Virus record (IMG/VR): IMGVR_UViG_2695420687_000004
Span: 1-7,023 of that record
Origin: a virus
Taxonomy: Duplodnaviria > Heunggongvirae > Uroviricota > Caudoviricetes
Reading direction: 5' to 3' (one strand)
Length of the DNA stretch: 7,023 nucleotides
The translations under genes and the position numbers were made by a program. Below are positions 313 through 6,855 of the stretch, piece by piece. The first letter of the stretch is position 1; every line of letters starts with the position of its first letter. The notes below the pieces were generated by a model that was not told the DNA's origin, did no database searches, and was given only the letters and a program-made list of their open reading frames with translations.

Positions 313-388
313 AGCGGCGAACCTCCTGATTGGATTAGGCTTCGCCCTATGTTGAAGTGATTGTGCCCGACAAACAGCTAAGTGTAGT

Positions 389-406
389 TGTACCGTTATT
401 CACACA
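389..406 (-). promoter_or_regulatory. candidate Ogr/Delta-type late-promoter activator site (TGT-N12-ACA dyad) upstream of the sheath gene
   Basis: TGTACCGTTATTCACACA at 389..406 is a TGT-N12-ACA dyad centred ~86 bp upstream of the FI start codon. If centred at about -55, as in P2 late promoters, the transcript would start near 342 and leave a ~30-nt leader. Caveat: this 6-fixed-base motif is expected ~1.7 times by chance in 7 kb, so position is the main support. Confidence 0.35.
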
Positions 407-454
407 AAATGACGGTATTTGTCTGCTTTCAGGGATAATCAAAATAAAGCTGAT

Positions 455-1021
455 TCAGGGAGATTCATTGCTCTTATTTGCCGGAAATTTTCGATAAATG
501 GTAGAAACGCCTACATCAAAAATCAGTGCAATACGCTGTCTTGATTCTCCGGCCTTGAGTAAACGCCCAATCTGTGCCCACTGTTCGCTGGTCAACTTAG
601 GACGGCGTCCACCTACTCTGCCTTTGGCACGAGCTGCAGCCAGCCCTGCCCTGGTACGTTCAACTATCAGTTCGCGTTCCATTTCAGCCAGGGCACCCAT
701 GACATGAAAAAAGAAACGGCCCATTGGGGTACTGGTATCAATACTGTCAGTCAGACTTCGGAAATTCACGCCGCGCTGGCGCAACTCTTCTATCAGCGTA
801 ACAAGATGCCGCATACTGCGTCCCAACCTGTCCAGCTTCCAGACAACCAGCGTGTCTCCTGCCGATAGTGTCCTGAGTAGTTTTTTCAGCCCCGGTCTGT
901 CGGACTTAGTGCCACTGATTTTGTCCTCAAAAATCCGCTCACATCCCGCGCAGTTCAGTGCATTACGTTGCAAATCGGTGTTCTGGTCATTTGTTGACAC
1001 GCGTACATAGCCAATAAGCAT
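455..1021 (-). CDS. site-specific serine DNA invertase, Gin/Pin/Cin/Hin family (188 aa)
   Basis: From ATG 1021..1019 (SD AGGGGA, 6-nt spacer): MLIGYVRVSTNDQNTDLQRNAL... with the catalytic-serine motif YVRVST, VVWKLDRLGRS, FRSLTDSIDTSTPMGRFFFHVMGALAEMERE and a C-terminal HTH region (GRRPKLT...STIYRKF), the hallmark of phage DNA invertases. Length 188 aa fits the family (~185-195 aa). The ORF-track start at 1138 adds 39 codons that read through the crossover-site region and is rejected. Confidence 0.93.
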   Translation of the reverse strand: MLIGYVRVSTNDQNTDLQRNALNCAGCERIFEDKISGTKSDRPGLKKLLRTLSAGDTLVVWKLDRLGRSMRHLVTLIEELRQRGVNFRSLTDSIDTSTPMGRFFFHVMGALAEMERELIVERTRAGLAAARAKGRVGGRRPKLTSEQWAQIGRLLKAGESRQRIALIFDVGVSTIYRKFPANKSNESP

Positions 1022-1076: not shown

Positions 1077-1102
1077 TTTTCATAAACGTTGGTTTGGGAG
1101 AA
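1077..1102. other. inversion crossover site, left (hix/gix/cix/pix-like 26-bp site: 12-bp half-sites around a 2-bp core)
   Basis: TTTTCATAAACG-TT-GGTTTGGGAGAA. The AAAC..GTTT-type imperfect dyad around a 2-bp core matches the architecture of Hin/Gin/Cin sites (for example hixL TTCTTGAAAACCAAGGTTTTTGATAA, from memory). The inner half-site plus 9 further bp (1089..1111) is a perfect inverted copy of 2451..2473. The site lies 56 bp upstream of the invertase start codon. Confidence 0.75.
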
Positions 1103-1483
1103 GCGGCAAAACGGAATATCGGTGCTGGAGCCAATCAAGTCCCCGACATGTCCTTTTTTACATCAGCAAAGGGTGATAACGGATACTTTTCCTTACCGGA
1201 CGGCACTATTGTGCAATATGGAAAAGCCACAACGATAAGAAATAATGAAATTAGCCTGGTAACTTTGCCATTTTCCTTTCCCACAAAGTTCTCTCAGGTA
1301 CTGATAACCCATGATGATGCCGCAACTACAAATGCAGTTGCTTTTGGCGCCGCCACTCCAAAAACTGTTTCAACATTTCAGGTTGTCGTGCAGAAACTAG
1401 ATTTTAATACCGCCACTGGAGCTGTCACATTACGAACCACTGCTTCACCGTGCTACTTCCGTTATATCGCAATCGGGAGCTAA
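1091..1483 (+). CDS. alternative tail-fibre C-terminal (receptor-binding) cassette H'v, promoterless in this orientation; after inversion it would fuse in frame to codon 350 of H
   Basis: Plus-strand frame of ORF 1049..1483. From 1091 it encodes GLGEAAK (identical to H residues 351-357, same DNA in inverted orientation) followed by 123 different residues (RNIGAGANQVPDMSFF...CYFRYIAIGS) and a stop at 1481..1483. Frame continuity across the core TT/AA dinucleotide was verified by hand. The ORF-track start at 1049 lies outside the segment and is not used. Confidence 0.7.
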   Translation, partial: GLGEAAKRNIGAGANQVPDMSFFTSAKGDNGYFSLPDGTIVQYGKATTIRNNEISLVTLPFSFPTKFSQVLITHDDAATTNAVAFGAATPKTVSTFQVVVQKLDFNTATGAVTLRTTASPCYFRYIAIGS

Positions 1484-1487
1484 TTTT

Positions 1488-1712
1488 ATGCAAAACAAAT
1501 ACAGTCCATCTATGAATACGTTCTTTATGGCTGAATTTATGCGTCGTTACGAACAAGCTGGTACATTGCCTGATGATGCAATAGAGATACCCGATGAAGT
1601 ATTTAAAGAATACACAGGGGAACCACCGGACGGAATGATGAGGGTTGCGGGTAGTGATGGTCTACCCGCATGGGCAGAAATTATTTACACTCAGGAACCA
1701 TCGGCCAGATGA
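1488..1712 (+). CDS. truncated paralogue of the tail-fibre assembly chaperone (G'/Tfa', 74 aa), partner of the H'v cassette; possibly a pseudogene
   Basis: SD GGGAG 8 nt upstream of ATG 1488, 4 bp after the H'v stop. The product (..YSPSMNTFF..YEQAGTLPDD..GEPPDGMMRVAGSDGLPAWAEI..) aligns with the N-terminal half of G (..FSPAENAFY..YLTAGTWPSD..GEAPEGKVRSIGDDGLPCWVDL..) but stops where G continues for ~75 more residues. Its 3' end overlaps the 3' end of G convergently (1681..1712). Confidence 0.5.
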   Translation: MQNKYSPSMNTFFMAEFMRRYEQAGTLPDDAIEIPDEVFKEYTGEPPDGMMRVAGSDGLPAWAEIIYTQEPSAR

Positions 1713-2118
1713 TATCAGGAGCACTGGAGGTATCAATCAGTTCCAGTGCGTCCAGATAATCCAGCCACAGATTATATTGCGCCAGTTCCTCACCTTTCAG
1801 ACGCCCGATTGCTGCTTTGCCGGGCCACTGCTTGCTATTCATATAATCGTTGGCCTGGTCAATTCTCGACTGCTTTTCTGAGTCAGCCACTGCAAGTTGT
1901 TCTTCATGCGTAGGTGGCGGAAGATCTACCCAGCAAGGCAACCCATCATCACCAATGCTCCGCACTTTACCTTCGGGAGCTTCTCCCATGAAAACCAGCG
2001 CATCGGCAGCATTTATATTGATGCCGTCTGACGGCCATGTGCCAGCAGTTAAATAATCATCTTGTAGTGCTACAAGATAAAAAGCATTTTCAGCCGGGCT
2101 GAATACATAGTCGACCAT
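1681..2118 (-). CDS. G: tail fibre assembly chaperone (P2 gpG / Tfa family), 145 aa
   Basis: ATG 2118..2116 overlaps the H stop (TAATG). N-terminus MVDYVFSPAENAFY and C-terminal ..APDIIWPMVPECK resemble the Tfa-family N-terminal YFS..N.FY and C-terminal DIEWP..P motifs (recollection). The ORF-track start at 2136 is an alternative 6-codon-longer start. Confidence 0.8.
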   Translation of the reverse strand: MVDYVFSPAENAFYLVALQDDYLTAGTWPSDGININAADALVFMGEAPEGKVRSIGDDGLPCWVDLPPPTHEEQLAVADSEKQSRIDQANDYMNSKQWPGKAAIGRLKGEELAQYNLWLDYLDALELIDTSSAPDIIWPMVPECK

Positions 2119-3521
2119 TAATATCCCACTCCCCATACTGCCACTGTTGAATTAGATTTCGTATATGCGCAAGCGGCTTTGAATTTGACCCGGTCAACAA
2201 TCGCTGCGCTAACAAAAGGAGCTCCATTAGTCGCGTAGATCACAGAATTGACCAGCGAAGGATTGATGGAAAGGCAAGCATTAGGAAAGGCAACCGGCCA
2301 TGAGTCATCAACAACGACCATATTACCGTCGGTAGATTGCGGCACTGATACCATCTTCCACTGAAGCAGTGCTGTTCGTTGTACTCCACCAATTAATACT
2401 GGAATAGTGATGTTACCTGCACTGCTGGCCAATGCTGTTGCAGCAGGCATTTTTGCCGCTTCTCCCAAACCAAGGTATGTGAGAAGACCAGCTACATCCT
2501 TTCCACTCAAATTAGTCAGCGTATTGTCCAGCGGTTGTTTACCTGCCAGTGCATTAAGCATTGTCGTGGCAAAGTTCGGGTCATTCCCCAGCGCCGCCGC
2601 CAGTTCGTTCAGTGTATCCAGTGCCGCAGGTGCAGAACCCACCATTGCCGCAATCGCCGATTTCACAAAAGCCGTAGTGGCAATCTGTGTATTGTTGACC
2701 GACTGCGCCGCCGTGGGGGCTGTTGGCGTTCCGGTGAGTGCCGGACTCGACAGTGGCGCTTTCAGTGCCAGCGCATTGTTAATGGTGGTACTGAATTTCG
2801 GATCATTGTTAATGGCTACGGCTATTTCTTTCAGCGTGTCCAGCGTGGCTGGAGCACCATTAATAAGAGCCGTCAGTGCCGCCTGAACAAACGCGGTGGT
2901 CGCAACCTGCGTGGTGTTATTCCCCGCCGCTGGCGTTGGCGCTTTGGGGGTTCCGGTAAACGTCGGACTTTCTTTGGGTGCATACTGTGAATGCGGGTCC
3001 GGTGCGGCAAGATGTTTTGCCATCAGGTCATCCACGTACACCTTCAGCTCCAGTGCCTTGTCATCCACATACTTGCGGGTTGCCAGCACTACGGCAGGGT
3101 CGATTTTCAGTGTGATATTGTCCGTGCTGCTGGTAATCAACACCATACGCACGGTCTGGGTACGCCCGCTGCCTTCAGCCAGTTGCGGCTTATAGCTTTC
3201 CGGGCAGTTGCCCACGGCAATCAATGCCCCGGACTCATCAAACAGGCCCACTTCACGTATCCACCAACCGCCCTCGTTTTCAGGGATCACCTGTTCAGCA
3301 ATAATCTGGCTGCTGTTCTGCGGGTCGATATAGAGCATATTCAGCGCAGCCCGGCGTTTCTCATTTACTAATGCTGTCTGCTTTGCGTTCGGCGTTGGCA
3401 ATGTTCCGCCGCCATCGCCGACCGCCATATGGGTAATTTTTAAAGGCACACCGAGCGCGGCGGCGCTGGCAAGTTTCTCCGCGCCAATATCCGTCAGCAG
3501 GGTATAAAATTTTGTGCTCAT
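2118..3521 (-). CDS. H: tail fibre protein (P2 gpH-like), 467 aa; constant N-terminal 350 residues plus invertible C-terminal receptor-binding tip
   Basis: ATG 3521..3519 overlaps the I stop (ATGA); SD-like GAGAG 7 nt upstream. N-terminus MSTKFYTLL..GAEKLA..MAVGDGGG..YKPQLAEGSGR and collar repeats (..NNTQIATTAFV.., ..LDTLNELAAALGNDPNFATTMLNALAGKQPL) are characteristic of P2 H / Mu S-type fibres as I recall them. The crossover core falls between codons 350 and 351. Confidence 0.9.
   Translation of the reverse strand: MSTKFYTLLTDIGAEKLASAAALGVPLKITHMAVGDGGGTLPTPNAKQTALVNEKRRAALNMLYIDPQNSSQIIAEQVIPENEGGWWIREVGLFDESGALIAVGNCPESYKPQLAEGSGRTQTVRMVLITSSTDNITLKIDPAVVLATRKYVDDKALELKVYVDDLMAKHLAAPDPHSQYAPKESPTFTGTPKAPTPAAGNNTTQVATTAFVQAALTALINGAPATLDTLKEIAVAINNDPKFSTTINNALALKAPLSSPALTGTPTAPTAAQSVNNTQIATTAFVKSAIAAMVGSAPAALDTLNELAAALGNDPNFATTMLNALAGKQPLDNTLTNLSGKDVAGLLTYLGLGEAAKMPAATALASSAGNITIPVLIGGVQRTALLQWKMVSVPQSTDGNMVVVDDSWPVAFPNACLSINPSLVNSVIYATNGAPFVSAAIVDRVKFKAACAYTKSNSTVAVWGVGY
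2460..2485. other. inversion crossover site, right (hix/gix/cix/pix-like), inside the tail-fibre gene
   Basis: TTCTCCCAAACC-AA-GGTATGTGAGAA on the plus strand; the two half-sites are 10/12 dyad-symmetric. The inner half-site is identical to the inner half-site of the left site in inverted orientation, with the same 2-bp core. Confidence 0.75.
2529..2960 (-). repeat. diverged tandem duplication (two ~215-bp units) inside the constant part of the fibre gene
   Basis: H residues ~188-257 (TFTGTPKAPTPAAGNNTTQVATTAFVQAALTALINGAPATLDTLKEIAVAINNDPKFSTTINNALALKAPL) and ~261-331 (ALTGTPTAPTAAQSVNNTQIATTAFVKSAIAAMVGSAPAALDTLNELAAALGNDPNFATTMLNALAGKQPL) are about 60% identical. The DNA units are visibly similar, for example ttcagtgtatccagtgccgcaggtgcag vs ttcagcgtgtccagcgtggctggagcac. 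Coordinates approximate. Confidence 0.6.
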
Positions 3522-4123
3522 GGATTCACTCTCATTGTGTCAATAACATGGACCGCCCCGCCTTCATGCGCGGTGCCGCCAGAAATAATTGTTTCGTTGA
3601 TATACGGATAGATCGTGATTTCTTCGCCAAGATAGCTGGCGGCTCCCACCCAATGCGGGCCGCTGGTCTGCAGGTTGATGGACATGCCGATCATGTGACG
3701 GCTACATGGTTTGGCATCGCTTATCAGTCGCTCAAGTTCCAGATAGGTATCTTCAGTGATGCCCTGGTCCTGCACGCCGATATCCAGGCGAAACGTGCCC
3801 GGTGTCTCTCCGGTCTGCCACCACTCAATAATGCGGATCAGAAAGCCGAACGGCTCCACCACCCGCCGCACGGCACTGGTGGTCCCTTTATGCTGATGAA
3901 TATAAAAAGCATCCTTCACCACCTGGCGCTTGACGCTTTCTGTCCAGCCCTCGTCCCAGCGATCCACAGAGAACGCCCAGGCGAGATAAGGCAGGAAACT
4001 GACCGGACAGGTTGCCGGATTCCACAAGTCACGCAGCGGCACCTGCAGATCAGTAATCCCGCTGCAGGTTTGCGCCAGTCGGCGCTCCAGTGAAGTTGAA
4101 CCCGGTGGCAGCAGACTATTCAT
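3518..4123 (-). CDS. I: baseplate protein (P2 gpI-like), 201 aa
   Basis: ATG 4123..4121 with SD GGAGG 5 nt upstream; start overlaps the J stop by 8 bp. Motif LWNPATCP..LPYLAWAFSVDRWDE and the position between J and H match the P2 gpI family (recollection plus synteny). Confidence 0.8.
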   Translation of the reverse strand: MNSLLPPGSTSLERRLAQTCSGITDLQVPLRDLWNPATCPVSFLPYLAWAFSVDRWDEGWTESVKRQVVKDAFYIHQHKGTTSAVRRVVEPFGFLIRIIEWWQTGETPGTFRLDIGVQDQGITEDTYLELERLISDAKPCSRHMIGMSINLQTSGPHWVGAASYLGEEITIYPYINETIISGGTAHEGGAVHVIDTMRVNP

Positions 4124-5024
4124 CCGTTCCTCCGTTGGTTACGTGCCACTGCGTACATGATGCCGCCTGTGTTTTGTTCAGGACCACATCCGCCAGAGGA
4201 GAAGCCAGCTCCACACGCTGCACACCCTCAACATGCAGGGCGGCAAAGATGGCGCTACGGCGAATATCCCGACCAAGACGCGTCTGACTGGCGATGTACT
4301 TCTGCAGGCTGACTTTTGCCGCTGCCATTACCGGCTCTGCTTCCGGTCCCGGATAAAGAAAAATGGTGGCTTCCACTCGGTACGGGATGATTTCTGCGCT
4401 GCGAACCGTCAGACGGTTAGCCACCGGGCGGACGTTCTCACTGTTCAGGGCGTTCTCCACCACATCCAGCAAGTCTTTTTCTGCTGTTCCGTCGCCTTCG
4501 CGGCTAAGGACAGTCAGCACCACCTCTGCAGGTGCCGGACTGGTTGCACTGGCATCCGCCACCCGACCGTCGGCGCTTCGTGCATGAAACTCATAAGCGG
4601 CAGTTGGCCCCGCAACAGAAAGCCCTTCAAAGGCTGCAGGCACACGCAGGCGTAATGCTTCATCACTTTCCATCACAGCCGCAACGGGCGGTACAGCGTC
4701 ATCATCAGCAGGTGTCACCGTCAGGCGTTTCACGTTGTAGTTAGCAGCGAGCTGGTCAAGATCGCCGCCCATCGCGTAAGCCACCATCACCGCCTGCGCG
4801 GCTTCGTTAATGCGCTGGCGCAGAAGCAACTCACGATAAGCGTTCTCCTGCAACAATTTGGTAACAGGTTCAGATTCCAGTTCCAGCGTGCGGATCACAG
4901 CTTCCTGCTCATCTTTCGGATGAAGCGCCACAAATTCTGCCTTGCGTTCGGCAAGCAGCGTCTCAAAGTCCGGCACATCCACAATCTGCGGCGCAGGCAA
5001 CTGCGAAAGGTCAATCACTGCCAT
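4116..5024 (-). CDS. J: baseplate protein (P2 gpJ-like), 302 aa
   Basis: ATG 5024..5022 with SD GGAG and 6-nt spacer; N-terminus MAVIDLSQLPAPQIVDVPDFETLLAERKAEF is typical of gpJ-family baseplate proteins. The ORF-track start at 5063 is a 13-codon extension without an SD and would overlap W more deeply. Confidence 0.85.
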   Translation of the reverse strand: MAVIDLSQLPAPQIVDVPDFETLLAERKAEFVALHPKDEQEAVIRTLELESEPVTKLLQENAYRELLLRQRINEAAQAVMVAYAMGGDLDQLAANYNVKRLTVTPADDDAVPPVAAVMESDEALRLRVPAAFEGLSVAGPTAAYEFHARSADGRVADASATSPAPAEVVLTVLSREGDGTAEKDLLDVVENALNSENVRPVANRLTVRSAEIIPYRVEATIFLYPGPEAEPVMAAAKVSLQKYIASQTRLGRDIRRSAIFAALHVEGVQRVELASPLADVVLNKTQAASCTQWHVTNGGTDE

Positions 5025-5370
5025 TCTCTGCTCCTGTTGATACGGAAAGGGAAACAGGCACACCGTTATTACGCCGCCCGGTCAGCGCCACCACCATTGA
5101 ACCGTCAAAATGGCTGTTGATGGTGATGGAATCCAGCGTCAGCCGTGGCTCCCAGCGACTCAGCGCCACATACACTGCCGACATGACCTGCAGGCGTAAC
5201 GCCGGATTTTGTGGCTGGTCTATCAGTGCCGACAGCAGGGAACCATATTCACGGCGAGCAATGCGGCTACCCTGCGGCGTCAGCAGAATGTCCCGCACCG
5301 ACTGGCGCAGATGGTCAATATCAGTAATGGCTTTACCGCTGGTATTGTTCATCCCGCTATAAAGCGTCAT
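5011..5370 (-). CDS. W: baseplate wedge protein (P2 gpW / GPW-gp25 family), 119 aa
   Basis: ATG 5370..5368 overlaps the V stop (ATGA); SD GGAGG with 6-nt spacer. Size and position between V and J fit gpW. Confidence 0.85.
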   Translation of the reverse strand: MTLYSGMNNTSGKAITDIDHLRQSVRDILLTPQGSRIARREYGSLLSALIDQPQNPALRLQVMSAVYVALSRWEPRLTLDSITINSHFDGSMVVALTGRRNNGVPVSLSVSTGAENGSD

Positions 5371-5945
5371 ACCGGGCCTCCAGTTGTGTCGCCGCCTTTC
5401 AGGACGCCAGTATGCTGATGCGCATCAACCTCGATCCCGTTAGAACTCATCGCTCCGCCGCCCTGGGTAACGCCACCATTGATCACCACTTCGCTGTTAA
5501 TGCGCGTGCGGTCAGCCTCCAGTACAAACTCACTGGTTTTCATGGTGATGTTGTCAGCGGCCTCAATGACCATTGATTTGATGCCCCTGACATACCAGCG
5601 CCCGGTGGCGGGTTCGTATTCAAACCAGCTACCGTCAGGATGTTCTGTCACGCAGGCGTCCGCCGACGTCGACGGTGGTGCGAACTGATTCGAATAGACA
5701 GCGGGCAGCGCAAAGGCGGTCTCCAGATTGCCGCCCAGACTCAGCAGCACCACCTGCTCACCTTCCGATGGTTTCCACCATGTCCGGGCATTACCCGCGC
5801 GCAGCGTCAGCCAGTTAATCCAGTTGGTTTCAAGGTCGCCCGTTTTCACCCGGCAAAGCCAGTTTTCCCGGTCCACTTCGGTGACTACACCTATGCGGAT
5901 CAGATTGGTGATAAGGCGCATGATTTCGGTTAGTTGTGCGTTCAT
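5367..5945 (-). CDS. V: baseplate spike / assembly protein (P2 gpV-like), 192 aa from ATG 5945 (alternative start 5921)
   Basis: MNAQLTEIMRLITNLIRIGVVTEVDRENWLCRVKTGD...TWWKPSEGEQVV..LGGNLETAFALP.. with a Gly-rich C-terminus, typical of gpV-type spike proteins. The start is chosen at the sharp composition boundary near 5946; neither 5945 nor 5921 has a clear SD. The ORF-track extension to 6188 runs antisense through the AT-rich island and the 5' end of the membrane-protein gene and is rejected. Confidence 0.8.
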   Translation of the reverse strand: MNAQLTEIMRLITNLIRIGVVTEVDRENWLCRVKTGDLETNWINWLTLRAGNARTWWKPSEGEQVVLLSLGGNLETAFALPAVYSNQFAPPSTSADACVTEHPDGSWFEYEPATGRWYVRGIKSMVIEAADNITMKTSEFVLEADRTRINSEVVINGGVTQGGGAMSSNGIEVDAHQHTGVLKGGDTTGGPV

Positions 5946-5991
5946 AGATATATGATGACAGCTGAAAACTTGTTTATAACTTCTTGCAAAT

Positions 5992-6009
5992 TGTGGTATC
6001 GATGGTACA
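5992..6009 (-). promoter_or_regulatory. possible late-promoter activator dyad (TGT-N12-ACA) for the V-W-J-I-H-G operon
   Basis: TGTGGTATCGATGGTACA at 5992..6009, in the intergenic region upstream of V. It is centred only ~55 bp from the 5945 start codon, so it fits well only if the transcript starts very close to the ATG or if V starts at 5921. The motif is expected by chance about once or twice per 7 kb. Confidence 0.25.
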
Positions 6010-6048
6010 AATTGATAAAAGGATAAAAAACAACCAATAGGTGGATAA

Positions 6049-6855
6049 ATGAGTGTTATGAATCCAATAAGTTCTAATATATTTAATGCTGAATTTTTAA
6101 ACACCCCGGCAGCGGCACTTGCCGCATGGATTTCCATTATTGGAGCTGTTATAACTTTGGTGACGATAGTTATAAGAGCACTATTCAAATATAGAAAATC
6201 TCATGATGTAATTTTGAAAAAATCAGGAATACCTGCGTTTATATTAAATTTTTTTCTTATACGAATATCATTAAAAAGGCTGCCTACTATCACATGGGCT
6301 GAAAAATCAATCACGGTTCTCTTTTCACTTCTTTTTTTGTATGCAATTTATATTTTTGGTCCAGTTTTCATCCAAGCCATTAGAACCCCACCAAATAGCA
6401 CATTGCTTTATTGGATAAAGTCCGGTGAATCATTTTATATGTCAAAAAAACTGGCGACTGCAGCTACAATATTAACCACTCCTGATTGGGAAATATCAAA
6501 GGATGATTGCGAAGAGTCATCCTCTGCCAGTACAGAGAAGTACAAATCATTAACTATCGAACATAAAGAAATTCTTTGTAAACTACTAACCACTGATGAA
6601 GGGAATGCTTACATTGATGAAGAAGTCAAGAATTTCGTTAAAGACAAATTCTTTATCTATTCCTTTGCCCCAACAACCATATTTATTCTATTATGGATTT
6701 CTTTGGGTTTTATACTGACCATTCACTATTCTAAAAAAGTTAGGAAATATATTCTGACTGAACAAAAAAATGCAATTCATTGGGCATATGGTGAATTCAA
6801 GACAGAAGGAATCTATTCAATATATCAAGAGTTAGAACGTAAGACTCACCATTAA
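6049..6855 (+). CDS. hypothetical multi-pass membrane protein (268 aa) encoded by an AT-rich moron; function unknown
   Basis: ATG 6049 preceded by AGGTGG (6039..6044, 4-nt spacer); possible sigma70-like elements TTGCAA (5984..5989) and TACAAA (6006..6011). Clearly lower GC than the flanking structural genes (by eye, roughly 30% vs 55%). Hydrophobic segments at about residues 21-45, 60-74, 87-110 and 199-224, with positively charged loops (KYRKSH, KKVRK) and an acidic soluble region at ~115-198 (..[34 protein letters not shown]..). It is the only long ORF in the island and lies opposite to the late operon. Confidence 0.75.

Follow-up and report, generated by a model that had tools for sequence, protein, structure and literature searches.

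A candidate N-domain-only tail-fibre assembly protein encoded with a gp53-like tip in the invertible segment of a P2-like prophage

The invertible segment and its two fibre tips

The invertible G segment of phage Mu (Gin), C segment of P1 (Cin) and P segment of e14 (Pin) share their architecture with the segment described here. In each of these, as in ours, a serine invertase gene lies next to the segment and the crossovers are inverted repeats, one of which falls within the fibre gene. The fibre has a constant N-terminus, which is combined with one of two tips, each of which has its own assembly gene, and the two sets are convergent. As with other switches of the Gin/Cin/Pin type, both orientations of the present segment occur in nature.

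Tail-fibre assembly (Tfa) proteins, such as gpG of P2, Tfa of lambda and gpU of Mu (PF02413), are encoded directly downstream of the fibre gene. The chaperone gp25 of cyanophage Pam3, which serves here as the reference for the role of each half, is modular, with a domain for fibre binding at the N-terminus and a helical domain for trimerisation at the C-terminus (PMC9608196). As summarised in those passages of the same paper that cite North et al. 2019, both Mu Tfa and gp25 bind the distal part of the fibre through the N-domain, and Mu Tfa is still present on the fibre once it is mature. For the conserved helical C-domain, a role in trimerisation has been proposed, by which the chains would be brought into register. 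According to the same passages, the variable N-domain is responsible for recognition of the fibre in the current model of Tfa function, and the conserved C-domain for trimerisation.

The window, by which we mean the whole stretch of 7,023 nt analysed here, is the tail module of a P2-like prophage and is encoded mostly on the minus strand. The P2-like tail genes I (3518-4123), J (4116-5063) and W (5011-5370) lie upstream of the fibre gene H on the same strand, together with V (about 5367-5945; 192 aa), which contains Phage_base_V and Apex domains. The mechanically called open reading frame at this position (5367-6188, minus strand) consists of V and approximately 80 extra upstream codons that extend into an AT-rich region (5946-6188); the real start of V is at about 5945. 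Upstream of V, on the strand opposite to the tail operon, is a gene for a 268-aa DUF6216 protein (6049-6855, plus strand) with a GC content of 32-35%, compared to about 55% in the tail genes. It has no match in PADLOC and looks like a moron or cargo gene.

A serine DNA invertase of the Gin/Cin/Pin type is encoded at 455..1021 on the minus strand (188 aa, starting from MLIGYVRVS; Pfam Resolvase, E = 2.4e-53; HTH_7, E = 1.2e-15) and is annotated in the same prophage as a "recombinase family protein". The left crossover site (1077..1111) is a 35-nt inverted repeat arm that is 89% complementary to the right crossover site (2451..2485), which is located within H. The segment between the outer ends of these arms (1077-2485) carries an alternative tip, Sv', and the gene G' on the plus strand, and the gene G and the present tip of H on the minus strand. 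In the present orientation, H (2118..3521, minus strand) encodes a tail fibre of 467 residues with an N-terminal Phage_tail_fib domain (E = 7e-65). The constant part of H lies upstream of 2485, and its variable tip, Sv, occupies 2121-2450. Sv' (1112..1483, plus strand) is a promoterless alternative C-terminal tip of the gp53-like type (Pfam Gp53-like_C, E = 1.9e-11), which joins H only after inversion. Comparison of Sv with Sv' detected no sequence similarity between the two tips, and no solved homologue of the gp53-like tip was found.

Inversion of the segment in silico produces an in-frame fibre of 480 residues (H'). The same event has taken place in E. coli GPEC1405, where the region equivalent to 1077-2473 is inverted at 99.7% identity between flanks that are 99.8-99.9% identical to the window and in one orientation with it. 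This is a clean inversion at the repeats, with natural breakpoints that map inside both repeat arms. The flipped fibre gene of GPEC1405 and H' are equal except for 2 substitutions in the constant N-terminal part and 4 residues at the crossover site, the latter resulting from the placement of the in-silico boundaries. The GPEC1405 prophage is apparently intact, and its 480-aa fibre gene is followed, after 4 nt, by a 74-aa gene annotated as "tail fiber assembly protein". Two IMG/VR contigs (L027 and L028; 99.7-99.9% identity) have the orientation of the window. The anatomy set out in the initial annotation, an asymmetric invertible segment with a short chaperone gene in the alternative orientation, is thus as described.

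The short gene, its relatives and the cassette

G' (1488..1712, plus strand) encodes 74 residues followed by a TGA stop codon. It begins 4 nt past the stop codon of Sv', on the same strand as the tip, and is therefore placed behind H' by the inversion, as is naturally the case in GPEC1405. Its Shine-Dalgarno sequence, GGGAG (1475..1479), is inside the last codons of Sv', followed by the TAA stop (1481-1483) and by the ATG of G' at 1488; the arrangement GGGAG(C/T)TAxxxxxATG is kept in all cassettes described below. Judged from this layout, the fibre operon appears to express the tip and G' in the flipped state alone, through a ribosome-binding site of the coupling type.

The partner gene G (1681..2118, minus strand) encodes a full-length, two-domain Tfa of 145 residues (Pfam Caudo_TAP, E = 1.9e-29; 102.9 bits over profile positions 3-131), and its ATG overlaps the stop codon of H (TAATG). 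A 151-aa version of the reading frame uses an earlier in-frame ATG; RefSeq gives the 145-aa form in the same prophage. G consists of an N-domain (residues 1-66) and a helical C-domain (approximately residues 70-145) with the end WPMVPECK (C-terminus ...SAPDIIWPMVPECK). The proposed homology between G' and the first half of G holds: residues 5-65 of G' align with residues 6-66 of G at 38% identity, gapless over 61 residues (BLASTP E = 8e-15). The conserved C-terminal part of G is missing from G', as had also been noted, with the boundary at residues 65-66 or so in the predicted models. G' matches phrog_188, "tail fiber assembly protein" (E = 5e-18), and is about 43% identical to the N-domain of P2 G. 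Against Pfam Caudo_TAP (PF02413), it covers only positions 4-60 of 131 and scores 20.4 bits, slightly under the gathering threshold of 22.1 bits. G' ends 12 residues past the N-domain and, unlike other Tfa proteins, has neither the helical C-domain nor the WPxxP end; Pam3 gp25, in contrast, keeps both chaperone domains. Another counterpart is phrog_19350 (PHROGs v4; 70 positions; function unknown), an N-domain-only cluster of proteins of about 70 residues that carries no annotation. Its profile positions 5-67 match residues 4-65 of G' (E = 8e-10), and it also matches the N-domain of G. No NCBIfam model matched. A frameshift or read-through of G' into a C-domain was considered and rejected, since, downstream of G', the plus strand is the antisense of G and no Tfa C-domain is encoded on it; in tblastn searches, the C-domain of G was the sole copy in the window.

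The AF2 model of G' (pLDDT 86) is a compact alpha/beta domain (residues 1-64) followed by a tail (residues 65-74) of low confidence. In the model of G (pLDDT 97), residues 2-65 are arranged as strand-strand-helix-strand-helix-strand-strand, and the seven elements in residues 3-64 of G' follow in the same order. The C-domain of G is predicted to contain helices at residues 71-95, 98-103 and 109-126. In fold searches, the N-domain model of G' had no detectable match to Mu Tfa (5YVQ) or any other PDB entry, and the model of G had only an insignificant match to 7ypx (E = 3.4). The Tfa family profile matches Mu gpU (5yvq_B, TfaU) only through the C-terminal domain (residues 107-175, E = 8e-15), which is exactly the part absent from G'.

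The short length of G' is not peculiar to this locus. All nine of its close homologues (67-100% identity), identified by a word-indexed search of 5.8 billion proteins, are 66-74 residues long. Among 1.84 billion representatives, an exhaustive HMM search identified 489 relatives, which are for the most part Tfa proteins of 135-150 residues, with a distinct group of 56-87 residues. Several of the short representatives are on long contigs, including those of Salmonella (75 aa), Serratia symbiotica (72 aa), Hafnia (70 aa) and Asaia (79 aa), and were thus not cut by contig ends. A second search added forms of 68 and 69 residues from E. coli and of 67, 70 and 78 residues from Citrobacter, on contigs of up to 5 Mb. 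The number of residues after the conserved Trp62, counted with an N-domain HMM, is bimodal (0-20 in 45 sequences, 20-70 in 22 and 70-90 in 90); since the second search enriched the sample in short forms, the shape of this distribution is meaningful and its proportions are not. The N-domain-only family consists of proteins of 67-79 residues (referred to below as about 70), in which the domain is followed by a short, unconstrained tail. The tails after Trp62 are unrelated between contexts (AEIIYTQEPSAR, AEIIYSS, ADLPEAEDEV, AEIPGEVAENAED and AEIPGSDGSPENSDSE), and the protein stays short even in homologues of only 50-58% identity, with four or more unrelated tails. Other short families, at 33-46% identity, accompany other tips, an example being the 67-aa family of Citrobacter. 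In a locus of another such family (L024), the promoterless tip (3153-3501, plus strand) before an intact 68-aa short Tfa gene is split over two frames, probably by a frameshift. Variation in domain number also goes the opposite way: one Tfa of 211 residues (P0011) has two tandem N-domains (residues 1-67 and 71-137) and a single C-domain.

In every cassette locus, the short gene is located 4-5 nt after the same gp53-like tip (...GANQIPDMSFF...RYIAIGS, then the stop codon). This tip is 73-88% identical across loci and contains the GGGAG in its last codons. The cassette was found in at least six downstream contexts. In the window, the partner is the 145-aa G with a 32-bp overlap. A related segment, in which both orientations occur (L003 compared to L004) and whose module has a fibre with a Collar domain, has a TfaE-like partner of 200 residues, for which the overlap is again 32 bp. 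A different baseplate module, with Phage_Wedge1 and Sheath_initiator, has a 201-aa partner and a 23-bp overlap. In Mu-like and P2-like modules, a 133-aa partner follows past a 34-bp spacer. One of these loci (L021; E. coli GCA_009394205.1) has the backbone of the window at 96-97% identity over H-I-J-W and the invertase, yet its cassette is only 80% identical to that of the window and is followed by a different, Mu-type partner of 133 residues. The invertible segment has been exchanged here as a module.

The remaining two contexts are fixed. In Klebsiella aerogenes and a metagenome contig, the cassette is present with no invertase and no partner. In Salmonella enterica (12 contigs), the genes are in the canonical P2 order V-W-J-I-H(333 aa)-short-FI-FII, and the same V-W-J-I-H-short-FI-FII order was found in a 33-kb IMG/VR contig. 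In P2-like prophages of Salmonella and others, the short gene accordingly stands alone between H and the tail genes that follow, and the 5-10 kb covered around it contain no invertase. In Salmonella, the 75-aa gene is immediately followed by a GACGGGC-TGAC-GCCCGTC hairpin and TTTTTTT, which can be read as a terminator. A scan of the Klebsiella locus for a hairpin and TTTT after the 72-aa gene made no call, and a terminator is therefore claimed for the Salmonella locus only. In two of the fixed loci (L007, 5350-10219, and L013, 1407-5249), the block U-T-E-FII-FI after H and the 72-aa gene is on the opposite strand, inverted compared to P2. Its occurrence in two independent samples indicates a lineage feature and not a mis-assembly; the fixed Klebsiella prophages in which the FI-U block is inverted may be rearranged.

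The cassette is rare. It was found in 1 of 5,426 complete E. coli genomes and in 1 GTDB species representative. A tblastn search of 50,697 records of isolated phages with G' and two further short proteins (P0010 and P0166) returned only full-length Tfa proteins at no more than 45% identity and none above 60%; the best matches, when checked, were 146 and 162 residues long. No relative of G' above 60% identity was found among the plasmids of PLSDB. A literature search of limited extent found no description of N-domain-only Tfa proteins; the link of such proteins to a specific fibre tip, and the evidence for selection on them given below, come from the present analysis.

Possible roles of the short protein

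Taken together, the conserved length, the recurring arrangement and the homology to complete chaperones indicate that G' is an N-domain-only variant of the Tfa family and not a broken gene. In the present orientation, H (467 aa) is followed by the full-length, two-domain G. Inversion fuses H to the gp53-like Sv' and brings G' into place 4 nt downstream, with its Shine-Dalgarno sequence in the last codons of the tip. The tip and G' are inherited together and exchanged together, as a two-gene cassette, between contractile-tail modules of P2-like, Mu-like and other types, whether or not these have an invertase. The N-domain of G' would bind the distal part of the H' tip, and G' would then either aid the folding of the tip or remain on it as a cap, in both cases without the helical C-domain. 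We consider it likely that G' is such an intact N-domain-only Tfa, inherited as a unit with its tip, and that it binds the H' tip and assists its folding or caps it. G' would then suffice as the chaperone for a small gp53-like tip, or act as its cap. Since this family of about 70 residues always occurs with one type of tip, gp53-like tips may not require the conserved C-terminal half of Tfa chaperones. For the broader statement, that N-domain-only Tfa proteins of 67-79 residues are complete assembly or capping factors for gp53-like tips, we put the chances as even.

If this reading is correct, the helical C-domain, which is thought to drive fibre trimerisation, is dispensable for some fibres, and the cassette is a natural minimal system in which recognition of the tip is separated from bringing three chains together. 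An N-domain-only family that provides the sole candidate chaperone beside the fibre gene in some P2-like prophages amounts to a natural test of the Tfa model, with three possible outcomes: for some tips a factor that binds the tip is enough, the short protein acts not as a chaperone but as a cap or adhesin, or the function of the C-domain is borrowed in trans. In each case, G' is a natural handle on the role of the conserved C-domain in fibre chaperones. The window places both chaperone architectures on one fibre shaft under the control of one switch, and thus offers a convenient experimental pair. Such a pair could be of use in the engineering of fibres and retargeted tailocins, where the choice of a matching chaperone is a practical problem.

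The initial annotation had offered two explanations for the short gene: either a deletion had left a degenerate, dead-end state, or an N-terminal domain is enough, with the C-domain dispensable or supplied in trans. The second is the more probable here, and the first is contradicted by the evidence in the next section. Within the second, supply in trans would mean that G' provides recognition of the tip only, and that the function of the C-domain comes from leaky expression of G, from the Tfa of another prophage or from a stand-alone C-domain protein. Potential helpers are not difficult to find. The family phrog_3792 (78 positions; "tail assembly chaperone") matches residues 70-143 of G, which is the Tfa C-domain alone, and stand-alone C-domain proteins thus exist in phage genomes too. 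The C-domain is conserved across phages, as seen in the profile match to Mu TfaU, and enterobacterial genomes often contain several Tfa genes, with a median of 2 matching places per genome. However, tblastn searches with three divergent Tfa C-domains found none on either strand in the 5-10 kb around each of three fixed loci (L007, L013 and L019), and found exactly one, that of the partner, in each invertible locus. After inversion, G points towards the fibre operon and, as judged from the gene order, would have no evident promoter of its own. In addition, the cassette moves across genera and from one kind of module to another (P2-like, Mu-like and others), and would then depend on a helper that it does not carry. 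Dependence on a C-domain supplied in trans is therefore unlikely in our view.

It is likewise rather improbable that G' has no chaperone function at all, and that the gp53-like tip folds by itself while G' serves as a tip-bound cap or as an adhesin that modifies specificity. Tip-bound accessory proteins have a parallel in gp38 of the T2 type. G' keeps only the domain that, in the passages on Mu Tfa in PMC9608196, binds the fibre and stays on the virion. Its strict co-inheritance with one type of tip and the purifying selection on it would be expected of such an accessory protein; however, these data fit a chaperone role equally well. G' is also closely homologous to the N-domains of ordinary chaperones, including that of P2 G. 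Furthermore, the tip Sv is itself a weak gp53-like match, yet it is served by a full-length Tfa. We thus retain the reading of G' as an intact N-domain-only Tfa that acts on its tip as a folding factor or cap. For annotation, it follows that "hypothetical proteins" of about 70 residues encoded after gp53-like tips should not be labelled as pseudogenes.

Selection, decay and the convergent junction

The explanation by deletion holds that the 3' half of G' was removed together with a spacer, so that the flipped fibre is made without a working chaperone and the flipped state is a dead end. Several features of the locus give this idea its appeal. G' lacks the domain that defines the Tfa family by sequence, the cassette is rare, the two genes end in each other's antisense in a manner that resembles a fusion junction, and decayed relatives are known. 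One of the latter (L030) lies next to a serine invertase gene on an IMG/VR contig of 96.7 kb; its short gene (2868-3100, plus strand) has an in-frame stop after 13 codons; the tip and the 132-aa partner are intact. In another, a metagenome contig (L018), it is the full-length partner Tfa (526-760, minus strand) that has two in-frame stops, and the 74-aa short gene (330-554, plus strand) is intact. The short gene of this contig has the highest dN/dS in the set (0.26-0.36).

The record of substitutions is nonetheless difficult to reconcile with a dead gene. For codons 1-63 of the short gene, which are overlapped by no other gene, dN/dS among nine alleles is 0.04-0.36 in pairs with estimable dS, with the exception of one near-identical pair. 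The dS values range from 0.33 to saturation and are at or near saturation in many pairs. In a larger set of 11 alleles, which takes in the Salmonella form, the 69-aa form of E. coli and the 78-aa IMG/VR form, the uncorrected pN/pS has a median of 0.24 over 55 pairs (range 0.08-0.41), and there are zero indels in 62 codons. On this comparison of alleles, the short gene is under purifying selection, since low dN/dS, saturated dS and the absence of indels are unlike a gene that has been dead since before this divergence. The dead-end reading is opposed also by the length of the protein, which is maintained through wide divergence and with unrelated 3' ends and contexts, by the position of the short gene, which alone occupies the place of G in P2-like prophages and is followed in Salmonella by a proper terminator, and by the occurrence of the flipped state in the apparently intact GPEC1405 prophage. 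As homologues of G' are routinely about 70 residues long, they form the natural short class that the initial annotation had itself listed as a refuting finding, and a degenerate switch is very improbable.

The resemblance to a fusion junction can be examined in the sequence itself. G' and G overlap convergently at their 3' ends by 32 bp (1681..1712), with the stop codon of G' inside the 3' end of G, as the initial annotation had placed it. The TQEPSAR-stop of G' is antisense to the IIWPMV codons of G, so that the tail of G' (residues 65-74) lies opposite the 3' end of G, and the IIY(T) codons of G' lie opposite the final CK-stop of G, all within 1676-1716. Since the cassette abuts the 3' end of G, the last codons and stop of each gene come from the antisense of the other. 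The K-stop ending of the partner recurs with partners that are only about 28% identical in the C-domain. The EIIY motif is present also in a 69-aa allele without overlap, and thus belongs to the cassette. We infer that the junction is either old, or was joined repeatedly at the conserved DNA of the WP motif, with partners exchanged afterwards; the cassette would then already have been short when it was placed next to G. A deletion specific to this switch need not be invoked.

That the overlap is a sequencing or assembly artefact, which had been raised as a possibility, has practically no probability, as four independent assemblies, covering both orientations of the switch (the same prophage being found in both states in different genomes), share the identical junction, and a homologous junction is present in seven further loci. 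Where two full-length chaperone genes converge, too, overlaps of about 29 bp are normal.
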